Source of the DNA: Blastocatellia bacterium
GTDB taxonomy: Bacteria; Acidobacteriota; Blastocatellia; UBA7656
Reading direction: 5' to 3'
DNA length: 64,000 nt
Assembly (NCBI GenBank): GCA_963765495.1
Contig: CAVXWP010000001.1
Span: forward strand, 704,001 to 768,000
Shown here: positions 2,913-12,957 of the stretch, piece after piece
How positions within the stretch are numbered: the first letter of the stretch is position 1
Layout: every line of letters begins with the position of its first letter
Translations under genes and position numbers: made by a program
The notes under the pieces: model-generated
What the model was told of the DNA's origin: nothing
Databases searched by the model: none
What the model saw: the letters and a program-made list of their open reading frames with translations, nothing else

Positions 2913-2945
2913 CAAAAGCCCCGCGCTAAACCAGCGCAGGGCTTT
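2913..2945 (-). terminator. Intrinsic terminator, expression platform of the distal riboswitch
   Basis: Minus strand reads AAAGCCCTGCGCT-GGTTT-AGCGCGGGGCTTT-TGTTCTTT. Confidence 0.85.
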
Positions 2946-2958
2946 CGAAAAACTCTCT

Positions 2959-3059: not shown

Positions 3060-5945
3060 TCACTGATTTTTTTGCGATTTTGTTTCTGCGCCCGCAAGCG
3101 CATCAAACCGTCGCTTTGTTTCATTTGACCAGCCGGGGATCAACTCTGTAACTGTGCCTTTGTCGTCTACGATAAACGACATCGGGACCGACACCTCTTC
3201 CGTAGCGTACAGCTTTTCGATAGCCGGAACTCCGCCTACATAAACCGGATAGCTGACGCCTTTCTGCGCGAGGAACCCCTTGATGTCAACACCCGACTCC
3301 GTATCGACGCTCAATCCGATCAGATCGATGCCGCGCGCCGTAAAGCGCGAGCGCAGCTTTTCAAGCTCGGGCATTTCGCGGGCGCAGGGCGCGCACCACG
3401 TAGCCCATACGTTGATGAGCAGACGGCGACCGGGGCGCAGTTGTTTGCGTAGAGTGGTCGCCCGCCCGTTCGCAGTCTTCAAAGCCAGATCGGGCGCGGG
3501 GCGGCCCACGGCTATTTTTAGTCCTCGGGCGAAGCTTTCAACTCGCGTCAATGGATCGGGCAGGTTCGCGCGTTTTAAGGCAAACGGTTCGGCGGTTCCC
3601 GCGCCCTCGCGCAGCAACAGGTTTGAGCCTGCTTTCGTTTCTGCCTCGAATCGTTCGGTCTTGCCGTTTGGCCATGTGACTTCTATCCACTCGGCGCGCT
3701 CGTCTCGGCCTAACCCGAAAAGCAATCGCGGGTCGTTTTGCGAGATGAAGCCTGAGCCGCCGCTCTTGATCTTTGTCAGCGTACCGGCTGATGTCTTCAC
3801 GCGCACCACTGCGCCGTAAGCATCGCGCCCTACATCCTTGCCGCCTTCGAGCGATATTCGCAAATAGTTGTTTGCCTGCCCTACGTTATTGCGAAAGAGC
3901 AGGTGCGAATCACCCTGAATGGTTGTGATGAAAACGTCGAGGTCCCCGTCATTATCGAAATCGGCGAAGACGCCTGCGCGACCGTCGCTGATCGAATCTA
4001 TGCCGGAGACGCCTGATACATCCAGGAATTTTTTTGTGCCGAGGTTGAGATAAAGCGGATCTCGTTCGTACCCGCTGAAGGAGAATCCCTGCTCGGAAAT
4101 CAATTGATTCTGATCATTGCGGAGCGCGCCTTTTTCTTTGCTTGAGTCATTTGTCTGCGTCACGACCTGACGCCAGAAATGACTTCAGGTGTCTTTCATC
4201 GACTTGCCCGAGATAAACCCGTTTGGCGAGTACAAATCTTCCCACCCGTCATTATCGAAATCAATAAAGCCGCCGCCCCAGGCCCACCCGCCTGAAAATC
4301 CGCCCACTTCCGATGTTACGTCGCGGTACTTTCCGTTGCCGAGATTTTCATAGAGGTTGTTGCCCGCGGCCAGTTTCTTCAGCACGTTGTCTTTCGAGCT
4401 CGAATTCGGAAAGAGCCGCGACAGAATGCGATTGCCCGCGGTCGAAGACATGTTTGTGGCGTGAAGATCGAGAAGACCGTCGTTGTTGTAATCCCCGAAT
4501 GCCACCCCCATGCCGTTGCCGGGGTCGAGCACTCCCCGCTCTTTCGCCTCGTCAACAAAGTGGTCGCCTTTGTTTATGTACATGGCTTTTTCGCCGAAGT
4601 CGTTTGCCACGTAAAGGTCGAGGCGACCGTCGCCGTTTGCGTCAAAGAACTCAGCCGCGTAACTCCACCGGCGGTCGTCAACCCCCCACTTCGCGGCCTC
4701 TTCGCGGAAGCGGCCTTCGCCCTGATTTATAAAGAGCAGATTGGGCGTGCCGTTCGTAGCGCGAAACCAGGAATCCGGCGTCACCTGTCCGTAACGGTTA
4801 TAACAGGATACGTAAATATCGGGGCGACCGTCGCCGTTCACGTCTCCGGCCACGGCGCTGAAGCCTATGCCCTGTATCGAAACCCCCGCTTCGAGCGAGA
4901 CATCCGAGAATTCGAGCTTGCCGTCGGGGACCATTCGATTTTCCAGGAGGATTTGCGAACCAACCGTCGAGATGAATATGTCTTCGTCACCGTCGCCGTC
5001 ATAGTCGAGCACAAGCGGCGCGACCCCGGTGGCCAGGCTCTTTACGCCCGCTTCGGTCGAAGCATCTCGGAAACGCCCGTGACCGTCATTCAAATACAGG
5101 TAATTTCGATCAGGCGCGGTCACAAACAGATCCATCCACCCGTCGCCGTTGAAATCAGAGGCCGCCGCTCCGTGCCAGATGAAGCCGTTGTTGCCCGCCG
5201 AGCCGTAAGAGGGAAGCGTGGCTGCTACGCCTGCGGGCGCGCTCACCTCAGAGAAAACATCCGTAGTTGCGACCATCGAATCGAGGCTCGCAAGTTCGAA
5301 TGAATCAAACTGCCATCTTCCTTTTGCCGCGCGTCGGGCGTTTACGTATGTGACGCCCCGCGCCCATTCGCGCTGGCCCTCGGTGTTGCGGCCTATCACA
5401 TAAAACGCGAGGCGGGCGCGACCCACAGGATTTGCCTCCTCAGGCGAATTCTTTGCATCAGCCGAGGCGGGCGGATTGAAATTAGCCTCTTTGACCTTGA
5501 AGCGAACATCTTCGATTTCGGCGAAGTGATCAAGAAATCCCGACCAGTCTTTAAGGAAACTTTCTTTCGTCATCGTGCGAAGCGCGGGTTTGCCCTCTTC
5601 GCCGTTTACTCCCCAGTCGCGCATGGCTATCCACTTGACCTGATTCTTGACAGGCAACGGCCGGGAAGGGAACGGGGCAGCCTGTAGCTTGTCGGAGAAG
5701 AATTCCGCAGTGCGCTCCGCGTTGCGATCCCGCGTTGCGACCGACAGTTCGAGCATATCGTTGGCGAGCGATTCGGATAAATCCTCGACCTGCTCAAGGC
5801 GTGTGATCTCGCCTGCGGGTGGCGATTTCTGTTCCTGCGCGCTTGCTTTGCGAGTGACCACTGCCGCAAGACAGAGCGAAAACGCGAGGCAAAGACACAA
5901 CAGCGCCCTGCCTGAACGCGATGAGAGCAACTTTAACAACTCCAT
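3060..5945 (-). CDS. Secreted FG-GAP(VCBS)/CRTAC1-ASPIC-UnbV protein with C-terminal TlpA thioredoxin domain; candidate selenoprotein read through the UGA at 4185-4187 (961 aa, Sec587)
   Basis: ORFs 4185..5945 and 3060..4163 are in the same frame, separated only by TGA plus 7 sense codons (KDT*SHFWRQVVTQ). The product has a signal peptide, many DxNGDGxxD repeats on both sides of the UGA, an ASPIC/UnbV region (GSGFISQNDPRLLFGLG) and WATWCAPC. Confidence 0.75.
4145..4184 (-). promoter_or_regulatory. Bacterial SECIS-like stem-loop
   Basis: Directly after the UGA: AGUCAUUU-CUG-GCGUCA-GGUCG-UGACGC-AGAC-AAAUGACU. It has an 8-bp lower stem, a 6-bp apical stem starting 11 nt after the UGA, and a loop beginning with GG. 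Confidence 0.75.
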
Positions 5946-8129: not shown

Positions 8130-11100
8130 TTAGTGTGACGCGCACACGTCATTGCACACAAACGGCAGAGAGGCTACGCCGCCCGGTGCCGGGTTCTTCA
8201 CAATGATCGGTCCGGGCAATCCCCCGCATATATTCCCTTTGAGCAAAAGTTTGTTGAAGGAATTCGTATTGCTTTGAAAATCTCTGAATTTGATTTTCTT
8301 TGGTGCGGCCCCTCCGACTGTTGCCGTTGCTCCCTGCTTGAAATTGCTTCCAGTCACTGTGAGGATAAACGCGCCGGTCGACTTTCGATTGACCCTGCAC
8401 CCGTTGACGATGGCAATGTCGGGTGGGTTTCCGCCATTGCCGTTACCACCGGTCGTGCAGGTAAACGTCACCTGGATCCCTTGCTCGTTTCCAAGTATGT
8501 TGCACGTCTGTCCCGCTACCAACGCCGACAGGTTCCTGCTCGTCCCTCCTGGGCCTGTTACGAAGATTCGGAACACCTTCCCTGCGTTAGCACTCCCGAA
8601 GTTGAATAACGCATCTATCGTGTCGTTCTTCAAGATCGTGAATACCGTCGCCTGTACCACTGTCCCGTCTTCGGCTACTGCAAACACCGATGTCACTGCT
8701 CCCGGCGTCAGGAAGCACGATCCCACTATCAGGATGTCCTGTGGTACCGCACAATTCCCTGATGACGGCGACGCACTCAACACTACCGGTGCTCTCACGC
8801 CAAGGTTCACTGCGCACACCGACGTCCTCGTGAAGTCTCCAAACACATTGTTGTCTCCATCCGTGAACGTCGTTGTCACTATTACTTCCACTACTCCTCC
8901 ACAGCATCCCAGCGGGAAGGCCGTGCTCGTCGCTGCTGCTCCGGCTGATCCGAAACTCACGGTCGGGAAACTCGCCGTGATCAGGTTCTTGCTCACTGGC
9001 ACCACGTTTGCCAATACGATCGGCACTTCCGTCGTCCCGTCTCCCTTCACGTCGACTTCGCATACCGCCTCGACCGCTGTCGTCACTGTCTTTCCGGGTC
9101 GTACTATCGGTATTCCTGTCTCCGTTCCGATCCCAGAGCAGATCGTCGTCACTTCATTTGGCAGGAATCCACATCCGACTATCTCTACTCCTACTGCGCA
9201 GAGTCGGTCTACTATGTCTGTTCCTGCGTTCGGTGTCCCGGCTCCTGCCGGTACTACCACCAGATTGCAGGTCGGGTTGGGCGGCTCTCCGCATCCTACT
9301 CCGTAGAAGCACACCTTCCCTCGATTGTTCTCATCCTGACGCAGCGGCGTGCAGTCTCCGTTTCCTTCGAATCTCAGGTCAAATGACGGTTTGGCAAACG
9401 TCACCTGTCCCTGCGAATTCACCACTGCATCAACTCCTGTGTTGAACAACTCGTAGATCTCCGGCTCCGTCCCTTCTCCTATCAAGCACGGGCAGATCGC
9501 TCCCACCTGCGCCTGATCGCAATTCGGGATCACTCCAAAGTGGCCGTCGGGCTGTTCGACTTCTCTGGCCAGACACGACAGGTTTGACGCGCACAGTCCT
9601 GGCGGGTTCAACGGATCGCGGAACCCTATGGTGTAGCCCACAAGCACCGGGCGATCCTTCGTCCCTAGCAGGTCCATCCTGCAATACTCGAAGCAGAAGT
9701 TCCCGCTTCCCGGATTGCGCGGCGGGCATCCTACGATTGTCCCTGTAACCGGTTCCACCGTGTAGCGCAGGTCGGTCGGCCCTTCCTGTCGGTCGAACGG
9801 CACGGCGTTGTTGCCTATCGGGTTTGCAGGATTGAAGGCCTGCGCCTCGTTCTCGTCGCAGCCTGTTCCATCGTCATACAGCGTCACTGAGAACGTGTTC
9901 GACGACATACACTGCGCGAAGTTTACTTCGTCGACTCCGATCGTGCCGAACTCTGGCACGTTGATCCATCGAATCTTGAACGAGTTGATGTTGGCAAATC
10001 CCAGTGCCATCACAGGGAAGGTGCCAAAGTCTGGTCCCAATCCAAAGTCTGCCCCACGAGTGTCGGGGTTTAGGTCGACCCAGGCCGGAGCGATTCTCGG
10101 AGGACCGGCTCTGAATATCAGCACATTCGGGCTTGGCGTAGGATCGCCCTCGCCGAAAGTGATGTTGCCGTTTGAGTTCCAGAAGAAGGCGTTCCAGACA
10201 TCGACGCCGTCTGAATCGCAGTTGGCTCCGATTGTCGTCCCGCCACCAAAGCAGAACTCGAATCCGCCTTCAAGCGCCCCATCAAGGGAGGGGTCGCCTG
10301 ATCCGTCATTGTCATCGCCACGGAAGGGCGTGTTCTGATCGTCTCCTCCGGCTACCTGATGGCTCGGATCGAGATCTTCAAATATGATCGGCCCTGCGAA
10401 ATCATCATCGCCAAGCACGGTCTGGGTCACACCAAGCGGGCTCCCGTCTGCTAGCGGTATCGCAAACGGGCTTGTTCCCACAAGTCGGTTTGTCTGTCGA
10501 AGGAATCCAACTGCCAATCCACTCAAGCCAGTCGGCAGCAAATTCACCGTGTCTATCGGTGCTTGATAGTAGATGTGATCGAATCGATCCGAATCTCCAT
10601 CTCCTACATTCCCTCCACTGGCTGGCGGGTTCGGGAACGAGTTCCCTCGGTAGTCCACATAATCCGCTCGCCGATCCATCGGACACCAGTCGGGGAAGCA
10701 CAACACTTCTGTCACAAACGGCGAGGCTCCCGAGTCGGCTGCCGGCGCTCCTCCGCTTATCACATACACGGTTGACTCCTGGTTTACTGCTATCCCAGAG
10801 TGCGAGGAGAAGTCTATCTGCATATCTATATGCTGGGTTATGGGGATGTTGCCTGCCAGCGCGTTCGTTCCTATGCTCGGGAGGTCTGGTCCGTTGCCTA
10901 CGACGAAGACTCTCCAGTTGCCAAAATCGCCTCCCCCGTCTGCTCGCCCGTCTGCAATTGGAAGGATGCCGCCTACATTGGGATCAATCAAGGCCACGGC
11001 CTCTCCTGAGCACATGTCAAAGGCCCCGCCGCAGTCGGCGAAACTGATCACCATCGAAGGCAATCCGTCTGGGAAGGTTGAGGTGGCCTTGAATCTGCCC

Positions 11101-12554
11101 TGAGCAAGGGACTGAATCCCGGTGTTAGAGGCAGAGACGGCTGCATAAAGCACGTTGCAGGGCCCGCAGGTGATAGCGACGATGTTGCCGAAATTCGTCG
11201 AGGCCCCGGTGTAGTTTGTCAACCTCGTCGAGCCGTTGGTCAGGGCCGTGGTCGAGGTGATTGTCGACGGGGTCGGTATCAACGGGATCACGCGGTTGAT
11301 GCGGCCCGTGTCGCCGCAAACGGTGCGTTTGAGTTCGGTAGCCTTGAAGATGGCAGCGCCTTCCGAACCGGTCCCCGTGCTCGGATTGAGAGTGACGAGG
11401 TTGACCAATTCGAAATACAAGCTGCCGTCATCATCGACGGCCACGCCCGCGACGTTTGAAAACTGGCTGCGGAGCAATTGCCGGACGTTTGTGAACTGAA
11501 CGAATCCGCCAAGCGCATCCGAATTCTCAAACAATCCTATTGCAAAAATGCGAGTACGGATGGGTTGATTGGCGGCATTCGAGGCTCCGCCTTCCGTGTC
11601 GTGAGTCGAGAAGTAAATCACCTCTCCGTGTCGCGCCTCAGGAAACGCATCCGTATCGCACAGGTCAAAATTAGAGTCAGGTCCTTCGGAAAAATCACCG
11701 AGGTCAGCTACGGGGTTAACGGCGATACCGGTTATGGTCACCTGATCGTCTGTGAAATCACCCGCAGTTGGATTCAAAAGCGTGAACCCGTTTGTCGTCC
11801 CTGTTGTGACCAGTTCGGGAACGTTGATGATCAGAATCGTATCTACAAGAGCATCCCCAAAAAAGTCTATGCCGATATAGAGATTGCCGACCGAATCACC
11901 ATAATAATAAATATTGAAGAAGGGATGGCCGTTGCCGCGTGTGTGCTCAGAGATTGCTGCCCGAGTCAAAACGAAATCGATATCAGGCTCAACTTCCGAG
12001 AGATCGTCAATCTTGACGCCGCGATCAACAGCACAATCTTCGCGACCGTCCCAGTCGGCTACCAATGCCACCTCAGAAAACTGAGTGTCGCGTCCGCCGA
12101 CCGTTGTGATGACGGCAGCCGACAAGGCGGCGTTCTCATTCAAAACGACAGGTTGGCCGATCAGAGGCGGGCTAGAGCGGCGAGACTGGCGGCCAGTGAC
12201 GCTGATCTTGCCGTCAGCAGGTCTGGCGATAGAGGCATTGGATCTACCGGCAATACCGGCTGCGATCTGCTGCCTGATAGCCCCGAGTTTGTTTTTAGGA
12301 ACGCGCTTGATGCCGAGTGCATCAAGGGTCGCCTGAGGAATCTTATTGTTGTCGCTTGAAGGCTGAGGAGCCACGGTAGTGGTGGGCTCGACAACCGGAG
12401 CAACAGGACCGGAGGAAGCCGGTCTTGAGGCAAGAGAGGCAATTGGGGGAGTTGAGGCACTGGAGGCCGAGGCGCGAAGGCCAAAGATCGGCACAGCCAG
12501 TGAGACAACTGCCACTGCCAGCACTGCCATCATCACTGCTCTTTTCGTTTTCAT
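8130..12554 (-). CDS. Very large Cys-rich secreted/surface protein with nidogen(NIDO)-like and C-terminal IPT/TIG-like regions
   Basis: Signal peptide MKTKRAVMMAVLAVAVVSLAV (the ORF track starts earlier, at 12587). NIDO-like WNSNGNITFG...PPRIAPAWVDLNP...IRWINVPEFG...NTFSVTLY. C-terminal LTVTGSNFKQGATATVGG. Confidence 0.8.
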   Translation of the reverse strand: MKTKRAVMMAVLAVAVVSLAVPIFGLRASASSASTPPIASLASRPASSGPVAPVVEPTTTVAPQPSSDNNKIPQATLDALGIKRVPKNKLGAIRQQIAAGIAGRSNASIARPADGKISVTGRQSRRSSPPLIGQPVVLNENAALSAAVITTVGGRDTQFSEVALVADWDGREDCAVDRGVKIDDLSEVEPDIDFVLTRAAISEHTRGNGHPFFNIYYYGDSVGNLYIGIDFFGDALVDTILIINVPELVTTGTTNGFTLLNPTAGDFTDDQVTITGIAVNPVADLGDFSEGPDSNFDLCDTDAFPEARHGEVIYFSTHDTEGGASNAANQPIRTRIFAIGLFENSDALGGFVQFTNVRQLLRSQFSNVAGVAVDDDGSLYFELVNLVTLNPSTGTGSEGAAIFKATELKRTVCGDTGRINRVIPLIPTPSTITSTTALTNGSTRLTNYTGASTNFGNIVAITCGPCNVLYAAVSASNTGIQSLAQGRFKATSTFPDGLPSMVISFADCGGAFDMCSGEAVALIDPNVGGILPIADGRADGGGDFGNWRVFVVGNGPDLPSIGTNALAGNIPITQHIDMQIDFSSHSGIAVNQESTVYVISGGAPAADSGASPFVTEVLCFPDWCPMDRRADYVDYRGNSFPNPPASGGNVGDGDSDRFDHIYYQAPIDTVNLLPTGLSGLAVGFLRQTNRLVGTSPFAIPLADGSPLGVTQTVLGDDDFAGPIIFEDLDPSHQVAGGDDQNTPFRGDDNDGSGDPSLDGALEGGFEFCFGGGTTIGANCDSDGVDVWNAFFWNSNGNITFGEGDPTPSPNVLIFRAGPPRIAPAWVDLNPDTRGADFGLGPDFGTFPVMALGFANINSFKIRWINVPEFGTIGVDEVNFAQCMSSNTFSVTLYDDGTGCDENEAQAFNPANPIGNNAVPFDRQEGPTDLRYTVEPVTGTIVGCPPRNPGSGNFCFEYCRMDLLGTKDRPVLVGYTIGFRDPLNPPGLCASNLSCLAREVEQPDGHFGVIPNCDQAQVGAICPCLIGEGTEPEIYELFNTGVDAVVNSQGQVTFAKPSFDLRFEGNGDCTPLRQDENNRGKVCFYGVGCGEPPNPTCNLVVVPAGAGTPNAGTDIVDRLCAVGVEIVGCGFLPNEVTTICSGIGTETGIPIVRPGKTVTTAVEAVCEVDVKGDGTTEVPIVLANVVPVSKNLITASFPTVSFGSAGAAATSTAFPLGCCGGVVEVIVTTTFTDGDNNVFGDFTRTSVCAVNLGVRAPVVLSASPSSGNCAVPQDILIVGSCFLTPGAVTSVFAVAEDGTVVQATVFTILKNDTIDALFNFGSANAGKVFRIFVTGPGGTSRNLSALVAGQTCNILGNEQGIQVTFTCTTGGNGNGGNPPDIAIVNGCRVNRKSTGAFILTVTGSNFKQGATATVGGAAPKKIKFRDFQSNTNSFNKLLLKGNICGGLPGPIIVKNPAPGGVASLPFVCNDVCASH

Positions 12555-12957
12555 CTTCTGTCCCTCCGAAACGCTGTGGGGCTTCATAACCTGCGACCAT
12601 CACTCCCGAAACACAACCCGGCCCGGGTCGTTTCTGTAAACTCGGTTTCTTAGAATCAAGTCTATTACTGAGGGTCTTATAAAGACTGCATATAATATGC
12701 CACACACTGGTAAGGTCTTCTGTCGCGGCAAATTCGTGTTATGGTTTTTTCTATCTGGATGGAATTAAAGGGCTGGAAGCATTGGCCTACGAAGTGAACC
12801 GACACTAAAGGTTGCCCCGAGCATGGATACAAAGTTTACGAAAAGTTGTCAAGAAAGTATACAGACGGTACTCAATACCCATTCGATCAGTCAGAAAAGG
12901 CCTTATTTTCTTCTACAATCAGGTGTTCATAAACACAGACGGGGCTTATCTCCTGTG

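Follow-up and report, generated by a model that had tools for sequence, protein, structure and literature searches.

Two open reading frames or one selenoprotein gene

A 64,000-nt stretch of the genome of a Blastocatellia bacterium (GenBank assembly GCA_963765495.1, contig CAVXWP010000001.1, positions 704,001 to 768,000; hereafter the window, numbered from its first letter) contains two open reading frames (ORFs) on the reverse strand, 4185..5945 (−, 586 aa, ATG) and 3060..4163 (−, 367 aa, GTG), which share a common frame in the ORF listing and are divided by one TGA. We asked whether these are two genes or the halves of one selenoprotein gene, as an initial annotation of the locus had proposed. 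The single in-frame TGA at 4187-4185 bridges frames of 586 and 374 codons, just as that annotation had described, and when it is translated as selenocysteine (Sec, U) the product has 961 residues, with U587 within GFISGKSMKDT-U-SHFWRQVVTQ. On comparative sequence evidence, we consider it very probable that the whole coding sequence, 3060..5945 (−), 961 codons followed by a terminal TGA (3062-3060), is one selenoprotein gene encoding one polypeptide, with UGA587 (4185..4187, −) decoded as Sec by way of a selenocysteine insertion sequence (SECIS). SelB and tRNA-Sec would carry out this decoding, directed by a small hairpin inside the coding sequence, with a 6-bp stem and a GGUCG loop, 11 nt past the UGA.

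The translation signals at the two annotated starts were compared by inspection. An AAGGA lies 9 nt upstream of the ATG at 5945, and no Shine-Dalgarno-like sequence was seen upstream of the called GTG (4163-4161), which straddles the boundary between the loop and the 3′ arm of the hairpin; the earlier remark that this start lacks a ribosome-binding site and sits inside a hairpin thus holds. The competing view is that the TGA is a genuine stop, leaving two proteins or a split or decaying gene, with a hairpin that is either incidental or a device for translational coupling. In favour of this view, every public source has two called ORFs, an in-frame GTG occurs 7 codons past the TGA, and UGA is also an ordinary stop in this genome, as at the end of the 5945..3060 gene itself. 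Set against these points are the missing Shine-Dalgarno-like sequence before the GTG and the makeup of the downstream part, which lacks its own signal peptide although its domains are of extracytoplasmic type. The break also falls inside a propeller fold that AlphaFold2 (AF2) models as one continuous domain. Together with the conservation described below, these observations make a genuine stop exceedingly unlikely. A contig from a single soil-metagenome DNA run, which may itself be the source sample, covers the TGA with 0 differences at a depth of ~4; this is not independent support.

Relatives carry TGA at the same column

Within the same family (53 genomes), three orthologues of 71-72% identity have exactly one TGA each, as does a relative of 35% identity, and tblastn matches in relatives span the TGA in a single frame. 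We collected 90 loci, 79 from a scan of species-representative genomes and 11 found earlier, among which L022 is the window itself and L033 and L052 duplicate L024 and L025. The codon at the column is TGA in 49 of these loci and another codon in 17, which are more distant homologues (GAG in 5, GGG in 3, other codons in the remainder); 24 have no alignable column. By record titles, TGA forms are seen in Pyrinomonadaceae, Blastocatellia, Vicinamibacteria, Marinacidobacterales, Latescibacterota, Planctomycetota and Akkermansiaceae, and the TGA-form loci span Acidobacteriota, Latescibacterota, Planctomycetota and Verrucomicrobiota, that is, four or more phyla.

An even sample of the phylum, comprising 401 genomes, was searched with Cys-form and Ser-form queries. 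The Cys-form query matched 60 times, in 50 genomes, and 56 of these matches contain one TGA (one row comes from the unpublished genome G106), and the Ser-form query gave 48 matches, 44 of them with TGA; carriers amount to 44-46 of the 401 sampled Acidobacteriota species (~11%). Of the loci fetched from this phylum sample, 30/30 had TGA at the identical column. A TAA or TAG at this column in relatives had been named beforehand as a sign of true termination, and neither occurs in the 49 + 30 stop-bearing loci. This constancy, with no decay over four or more phyla, argues against a genuine stop, as does the behaviour of the codons between the TGA and the GTG. These encode a conserved S-x-F-W-R, and the Ser codon immediately past the TGA varies between AGY and TCG in the alignment, a switch that implies selection on a protein translated in this frame.

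The public record nevertheless cuts the gene in two: 81 of the best 120 database matches end exactly at SGK(S/T)MKDT, and public sources name the truncated entries VCBS or FG-GAP repeat proteins.

A compact hairpin is conserved downstream of the TGA

In the proposed bacterial SECIS core (4157..4184, −), the first 11 nt (4184-4174) are a spacer. The 5′ arm GCGUCA (4173-4168) then pairs with the 3′ arm UGACGC (4162-4157) around the loop GGUCG (4167-4163), exactly the apical stem that had been noticed 11 nt past the UGA. The initial annotation had let the hairpin begin at the base right after the UGA, and such an outer stem, AGUCAUUU/AAAUGACU, does exist in the window, where 4184-4177 pairs with 4152-4145; its 3′ half AAAUGACU (4145..4152, −) is window-specific, however, and in a 45-sequence alignment only the apical 6-bp hairpin is kept in relatives. 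A 71-nt stretch folds at −19.2 kcal/mol (z = −2.78), and 1/200 shuffles was equally good. Fold energy alone is modest, and the weight of the hairpin evidence comes from comparison.

The alignment comprised 45 stretches of 60 nt and left out two duplicates and two loci with displaced hairpins (L026 and L079). RNAalifold predicted, without prompting, exactly the six apical pairs (consensus fold −9.47), which are formed in 257/258 cells (99.6%), against 68.6% at most for slid registers. Pair 33-43 occurs as UA in 24 sequences, CG in 12, GU in 5 and AU in 2, with zero broken, and pair 35-41 as AU in 42 and GC in 1; the covariation score of 0.294 compares with 0.133 ± 0.014 for shuffled alignments and was attained by 0/500 of them. 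The compensatory changes for which a search had been suggested are thus present, and a paralogue supplies a fifth type, GC, at pair 33-43. The covarying bases of this pair are the wobble base of the Arg(+5) codon and the first base of the Thr/Ala/Ser(+9) codon, and their covariation is without a protein-level reason. Across 66 distinct stretches, the Val(+8) codon is GTG in 64/64 Val codons; the codon of Val(+7), which lies in the loop, ends in G in 19, C in 33 and T in 14, and all four third bases are used for Thr(−1). Three non-Sec homologues, with Ser, Glu or Leu at the column and encoding WRHV(V/L)A or WQHVVA, have 1-3 of the six pairs broken.

We also compared the hairpin with the published bSECIS model, which in section 5 of PMC13188914 is given as a loop of 3-9 nt, a G in the first two loop positions, a spacing of 16-37 nt and a minimum free energy of at most −7.5. 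The hairpin agrees with every one of these constraints as set out in that section, with its GGUCG loop 17 nt from the UGA on a 6-bp stem.

Some divergent members show variations on this arrangement. Two divergent TGA forms, L079 (3982-4041, from a Pirellulales metagenome-assembled genome, MAG) and L026 (G020:C359), are without TlpA and have the hairpin displaced a few bases further downstream. In L071 (4696-4850, a Planctomycetota MAG), the Sec codon is 577, and further in-frame TGAs stand at codons 598 and 602 in a lineage-specific insert; a second hairpin with the same geometry as the first, GCGCCA-GGUCC-UGGCGC, begins 11 nt after TGA 602. These extra TGAs may represent a duplicated SECIS with extra Sec codons, or a local assembly error. 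A longer paralogous clade (L148, L149, L073-L075 and rows from the 401 genomes), with frames of ~1330-1414 aa that are 36-39% identical, shows the motif DDL-U-SF(F/L)WRQVV, in which the single TGA occupies the same column, together with a hairpin that matches and the TlpA CxxC.

The genome encodes selenocysteine machinery and an FdhA selenoprotein

The window's genome (7.3 Mb, 17 contigs, 97.9% complete) holds all of the Sec machinery that the initial annotation had proposed to look for: selB (374 bits), selA (566 bits) and selD (386 bits), each above its curated cut-off, and a tRNA-Sec (71 bits) that ARAGORN calls SeC with anticodon tca (UCA). Beyond this genome, selA and selB exceed the cut-off in 5/5 TGA carriers, from Latescibacterota, Akkermansiaceae, Planctomycetota, Marinacidobacterales and another Acidobacteriota lineage. 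Within the family, selA is present in 52/53 genomes, so co-occurrence with the TGA form cannot discriminate there.

A positive control is provided by the genome's FdhA (G000:C10:124691-127717), a selenoprotein gene with one in-frame TGA (ARI-U-HSASVPG) whose SECIS consists of the UGA, 11 nt, a 7-bp stem and a GGUCU loop; we use it for comparison in place of the E. coli fdhF element, whose likeness had been pointed out at the outset. In both genes, 11 nt separate the in-frame UGA from a short G+C-rich stem, whose loop has 5 nt and starts with the common motif GGUC, and both are served by the same selA/selB/selD/tRNA-Sec machinery. The proteins belong to unrelated families: the Sec of FdhA is a ligand of Mo or W within a U-H-x-x motif, whereas Sec587 comes after D-T, at the beginning of a helix in an excursion of the propeller.

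These data bear on a second alternative, in which translation passes the UGA without selenium, for instance through a near-cognate Trp or Cys tRNA, and the hairpin is a general read-through stimulator. Read-through stimulated by downstream structure does exist in other systems. Here, the full Sec machinery in the genome, the selA and selB genes in all five distant carriers tested, and a hairpin that matches both the SelB-type consensus and the FdhA SECIS in spacing and GGUC loop all speak for Sec, as does the alternation of Sec and Cys at the column, where no homologue has Trp. Selenium-free read-through is, in our judgement, very unlikely.

A few observations count against Sec decoding. Relatives have no conserved Cys at the Sec column, which is unusual for a catalytic Sec. 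The non-Sec DNA control for the hairpin is small, at three sequences only; the covariation comes mainly from one pair, and the paired cells are related sequences, not independent events. No RNA run is among the sequencing runs that hold the gene. Rfam at gathering thresholds gives 0 matches over the whole window, a null that says little because no bacterial SECIS family was found among its matches. Taken together, the in-frame UGA with conserved flanks, the bSECIS-type stem-loop, its compensatory changes and the Sec machinery nevertheless correspond to what defines a bacterial selenoprotein gene, as far as sequence can tell.

A predicted exported propeller protein with its own thioredoxin-fold domain

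The read-through product would be an exported protein of ~100 kDa with a signal peptide, an NTF2-like domain, a CRTAC1-type FG-GAP propeller, an UnbV/ASPIC domain and a TlpA-like domain. By inspection of the translation, residues 1-36 (5838..5945, −) form a signal peptide with a basic n-region, a hydrophobic core and an ASA/Q junction, and AF2 places an N-terminal helix there, followed by a low-confidence stretch at 31-38. Residues ~44-233 (5247..5816, −) form an NTF2-like (ketosteroid-isomerase-like) alpha+beta domain according to AF2 (pLDDT 89.9) and Foldseek (best match 3hx8_B, E 3.5e-5, TMt 0.76). Pfam at E<=10 finds nothing on residues 40-240, nor on the 60 residues past Sec.

The FG-GAP/integrin-type beta-propeller with DxDxDG loops follows at residues ~255-700 (3846..5183, −; Pfam FG-GAP_3, 1.1e-44, 6 stretches), and its FG-GAP_3 stretches lie on both sides of the TGA, as had been claimed. 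It matches murine CRTAC1 (PDB 9etn_A) by sequence (E 1.7e-27) and by fold (Foldseek, E 2e-28, TMt 0.74), and it leads into an UnbV/ASPIC domain at residues 709-767 (3645..3821, −; Pfam PF07593, 5.3e-16) that aligns to CRTAC1 373-484. This order of propeller and UnbV_ASPIC, by Pfam and by 9etn in sequence and fold, places the protein in the CRTAC1/ASPIC-UnbV family, whose murine member is likewise secreted. The two differ in that the region around Sec (~567-635) does not align to CRTAC1, and in that our protein adds the N-terminal NTF2-like and C-terminal TlpA domains. A literature search on CRTAC1 structure found no paper on 9etn.

The C-terminal TlpA/ResA-like thioredoxin-fold domain (residues 813-943; 3117..3509, −) matches Pfam AhpC-TSA and Redoxin and, in Foldseek, ResA and TlpA (TMt ~0.8), and carries the CxxC redox motif C851-A-P-C854 (3384..3395, −; WCAPC = 850-854), so that the suggested TlpA domain with WCAPC is borne out. 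With its thioredoxin fold and WCxxC, and an extracytoplasmic location that follows from the signal peptide read by inspection, the domain falls in the TlpA/ResA-like class; all NCBIfam ResA/TlpA equivalog and subfamily scores are below cut-off, which makes it a member of that class and not an orthologue of ResA or TlpA. The Foldseek matches to TlpA include its trapped complexes with ScoI and CoxB (PDB 4txo and 4txv). No NCBIfam model covers the non-TlpA part. Like the Sec-containing TlpA-like families (WAxxUGC, UGC-TlpA), this is a selenoprotein candidate with an exported thioredoxin-fold reductase domain, but in those families Sec sits in the redox motif, whereas here the motif WCAPC has two Cys, and the NF041054 score of 43.9 bits against a cut-off of 300 places the protein outside them.

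An AF2 model built on a 31-row alignment (pLDDT 88, pTM 0.86) has a confident linker to the TlpA domain and places Sec587 as the first residue of helix 587-596, in a helical excursion (residues ~575-630) that breaks the propeller between blades. The earlier picture of a 961-aa exported protein with Sec inside a beta-propeller therefore holds for the length, the signal peptide and the propeller, but Sec is not in a blade strand. Sec587 lies 264 residues upstream of the CxxC, in a different domain.

The model also bears on the notion that the UGA is a selenium-dependent switch, with low selenium giving a truncated 586-residue product that has its own function. Bacterial Sec insertion does compete with termination, and a metagenomic relative of 705 aa, P0018, is without the Sec region altogether: two DFDNDG repeats are joined directly, ~100 residues are gone, and the ASPIC and TlpA domains are kept. 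Termination at this point would leave the propeller without its last blades, and such a product probably does not fold; we see no hint in the data of a role for it. We regard such a switch as improbable.

Most Sec-form rows carry the TlpA domain

We next consider the residue at the Sec column in relatives. In 37 gene-called full-length homologues it is Ser in 10, Arg in 10, Ala in 4, Cys in 3 (P0002, P0011 and P0017), Leu in 3 and Glu in 2, with five singletons. Cys, which had been proposed as a residue to look for at this column, is seen in 3/37, and most non-Sec forms have Ser, Arg or another residue. In a FastTree phylogeny of 78 rows, to be read with long-branch caveats, the Sec rows are paraphyletic, with Ser, Cys and other forms nested within them, and Sec needs 7 changes; the simplest reading of this topology is that Sec is old and was lost repeatedly.

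Among 47 Sec-form ORFs, the only conserved Cys residues are the TlpA CxxC pair, both present in 44/44 ORFs that cover it and, by read-through, in L071, which leaves Sec587 as the sole other conserved redox-capable residue of the mature protein. The TlpA domain itself is found in 41/43 Sec rows and 4/35 non-Sec rows, and a Ser clade (P0003-P0010) has neither Sec nor TlpA. In L073 and L074, TlpA is located further from the C-terminus. Positions conserved specifically in the Sec form are only N505, A526, K581, S624 and P796, among which no clear active-site signature emerges.

A possible redox relay

The explanation that we favour is that the gene encodes one exported Sec protein whose Sec takes part in a redox relay, and as a whole we find this account highly probable; the relay itself, as a role for Sec587, is a tentative proposal that we would put at somewhat short of even. 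Sec587 would be the redox-active centre of an extracytoplasmic oxidoreductase, either a reductase or a peroxidase, acting on a substrate that either the propeller or the NTF2-like domain would bind. The fused CxxC would resolve oxidised Sec (Se-OH or Se-S) and would itself be re-reduced via a membrane protein of the DsbD/CcdA type; a DsbD_TM protein is encoded in the genome. In PilB-type MsrA/MsrB proteins with a fused TlpA/DsbE-like domain, an extracytoplasmic enzyme has its oxidised chalcogen recycled by a CxxC that is fed by DsbD. This is a functional analogy only, as the catalytic part has no relation to ours in sequence or fold. The divergent L079 has a Cys two residues past Sec (U-S-C), which we count in favour of a redox mechanism.

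Other findings sit less easily with a relay. Three relatives that have a fused TlpA domain and Val, Leu or Ser at the Sec column (P0012, P0015 and P0016) keep the CxxC, so TlpA does not need Sec. A test of independent pairs for Sec against TlpA was not significant (3.8 changed the same way, 0.2 in opposite ways and 2.0 unchanged; median p 0.125). Finally, the neighbours in the window, namely a short-chain dehydrogenase/reductase (SDR), a pyridoxal phosphate (PLP) enzyme, an amidase, a 1485-aa ORF and a PilZ/DnaJ protein, show no apparent functional link.

The main rival to the relay accepts a selenoprotein and makes Sec587 a metal or metalloid ligand, with TlpA acting independently on other periplasmic substrates. 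The relatives that keep the CxxC without Sec fit this view, as do the many DxDxDG cation loops on the propeller and a vanadium-haloperoxidase-like gene directly after the selenoprotein gene in 5/41 loci; several of the bacterial selenoproteins catalogued in Table 1 of PMC13188914 are metal-binding. The alignment, for its part, has no second conserved soft ligand (a Cys or His cluster) near Sec. The position of Sec at a helix N-terminus beside Thr and Ser is more like redox-active sites, and Sec and TlpA were lost together in the Ser clade. A ligand role appears rather unlikely to us.

Genomic neighbourhood

Clustering of the neighbourhoods of 41 orthologous loci gave partial conservation only. 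The vanadium-haloperoxidase-like gene (DUF6851 + VCPO_2nd + PAP2; e.g. L034:5910-7469) follows on the same strand in the five loci mentioned, and a TPR + FG-GAP protein lies downstream in 13/41; neither occurs in the window. The 1485-aa ORF at 8130-12587 (−) matches no Pfam family at E<=0.001. A terminator-like hairpin of 16 pairs with a T-rich tail (2913..2947, −) lies ~110 nt past the gene's stop, and a second one of 13 pairs, at 2831-2803 (−) and ~115 nt away, closely resembles it. Both are built on GCGCGGGGC followed by a T-rich tail, between the selenoprotein gene and the next gene, and they may be copies of a repeated element.

Relation to known selenoproteins and significance

A 2026 catalogue lists 119 prokaryotic selenoprotein families and subfamilies (PMC13188914, Table 1). 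In keeping with the statement that FG-GAP/ASPIC proteins are not among the classical selenoprotein families, Table 1 has no FG-GAP/ASPIC/CRTAC1 entry; the family may still be included among the candidates of deep-Sep or BSepDB. Term searches of PMC12013277 and PMC13326102 gave 0 occurrences of FG-GAP, ASPIC, CRTAC1, VCBS or propeller, and a literature search for a selenoprotein with FG-GAP, CRTAC1, ASPIC/UnbV/VCBS or propeller found nothing relevant. The nearest parallels in Table 1 of PMC13188914 are envelope selenoproteins that have no thioredoxin fold, namely a TonB-dependent receptor of FCYXU type, an MtrB/PioB-family barrel and the ExtKL cytochrome; these too carry Sec in exported non-thioredoxin proteins and were found by comparative genomics, but they have other folds and motifs, and none listed there is a beta-propeller.

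We conclude that the gene very likely represents a new selenoprotein family with a textbook decoding mechanism, as judged from sequence comparison. It would add to the known bacterial selenoproteins a family that is common in soil Acidobacteriota, with its Sec outside any thioredoxin-type motif, in a CRTAC1-family beta-propeller. The systematic two-way cutting of these genes in databases means that domain statistics for VCBS/FG-GAP and TlpA-like proteins of soil metagenomes are distorted.

To our knowledge, the CRTAC1 family is of unknown function from bacteria to mammals, and a conserved Sec with a built-in reductase would give an experimental entry to the chemistry of CRTAC1-like proteins. 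A broader possibility, which we advance with less than even confidence, is that the protein is a founding member of an unrecognised selenoenzyme class, in which a CRTAC1-like clade spanning at least four phyla had Sec ancestrally, and a Sec borne on a helix of an integrin-type propeller makes up, with the fused TlpA domain, a self-contained periplasmic redox relay. If this is true, the enigmatic CRTAC1/ASPIC fold would have an enzymatic, redox-based origin, and the family could rank among the commonest non-FdhA selenoproteins in soil bacteria.

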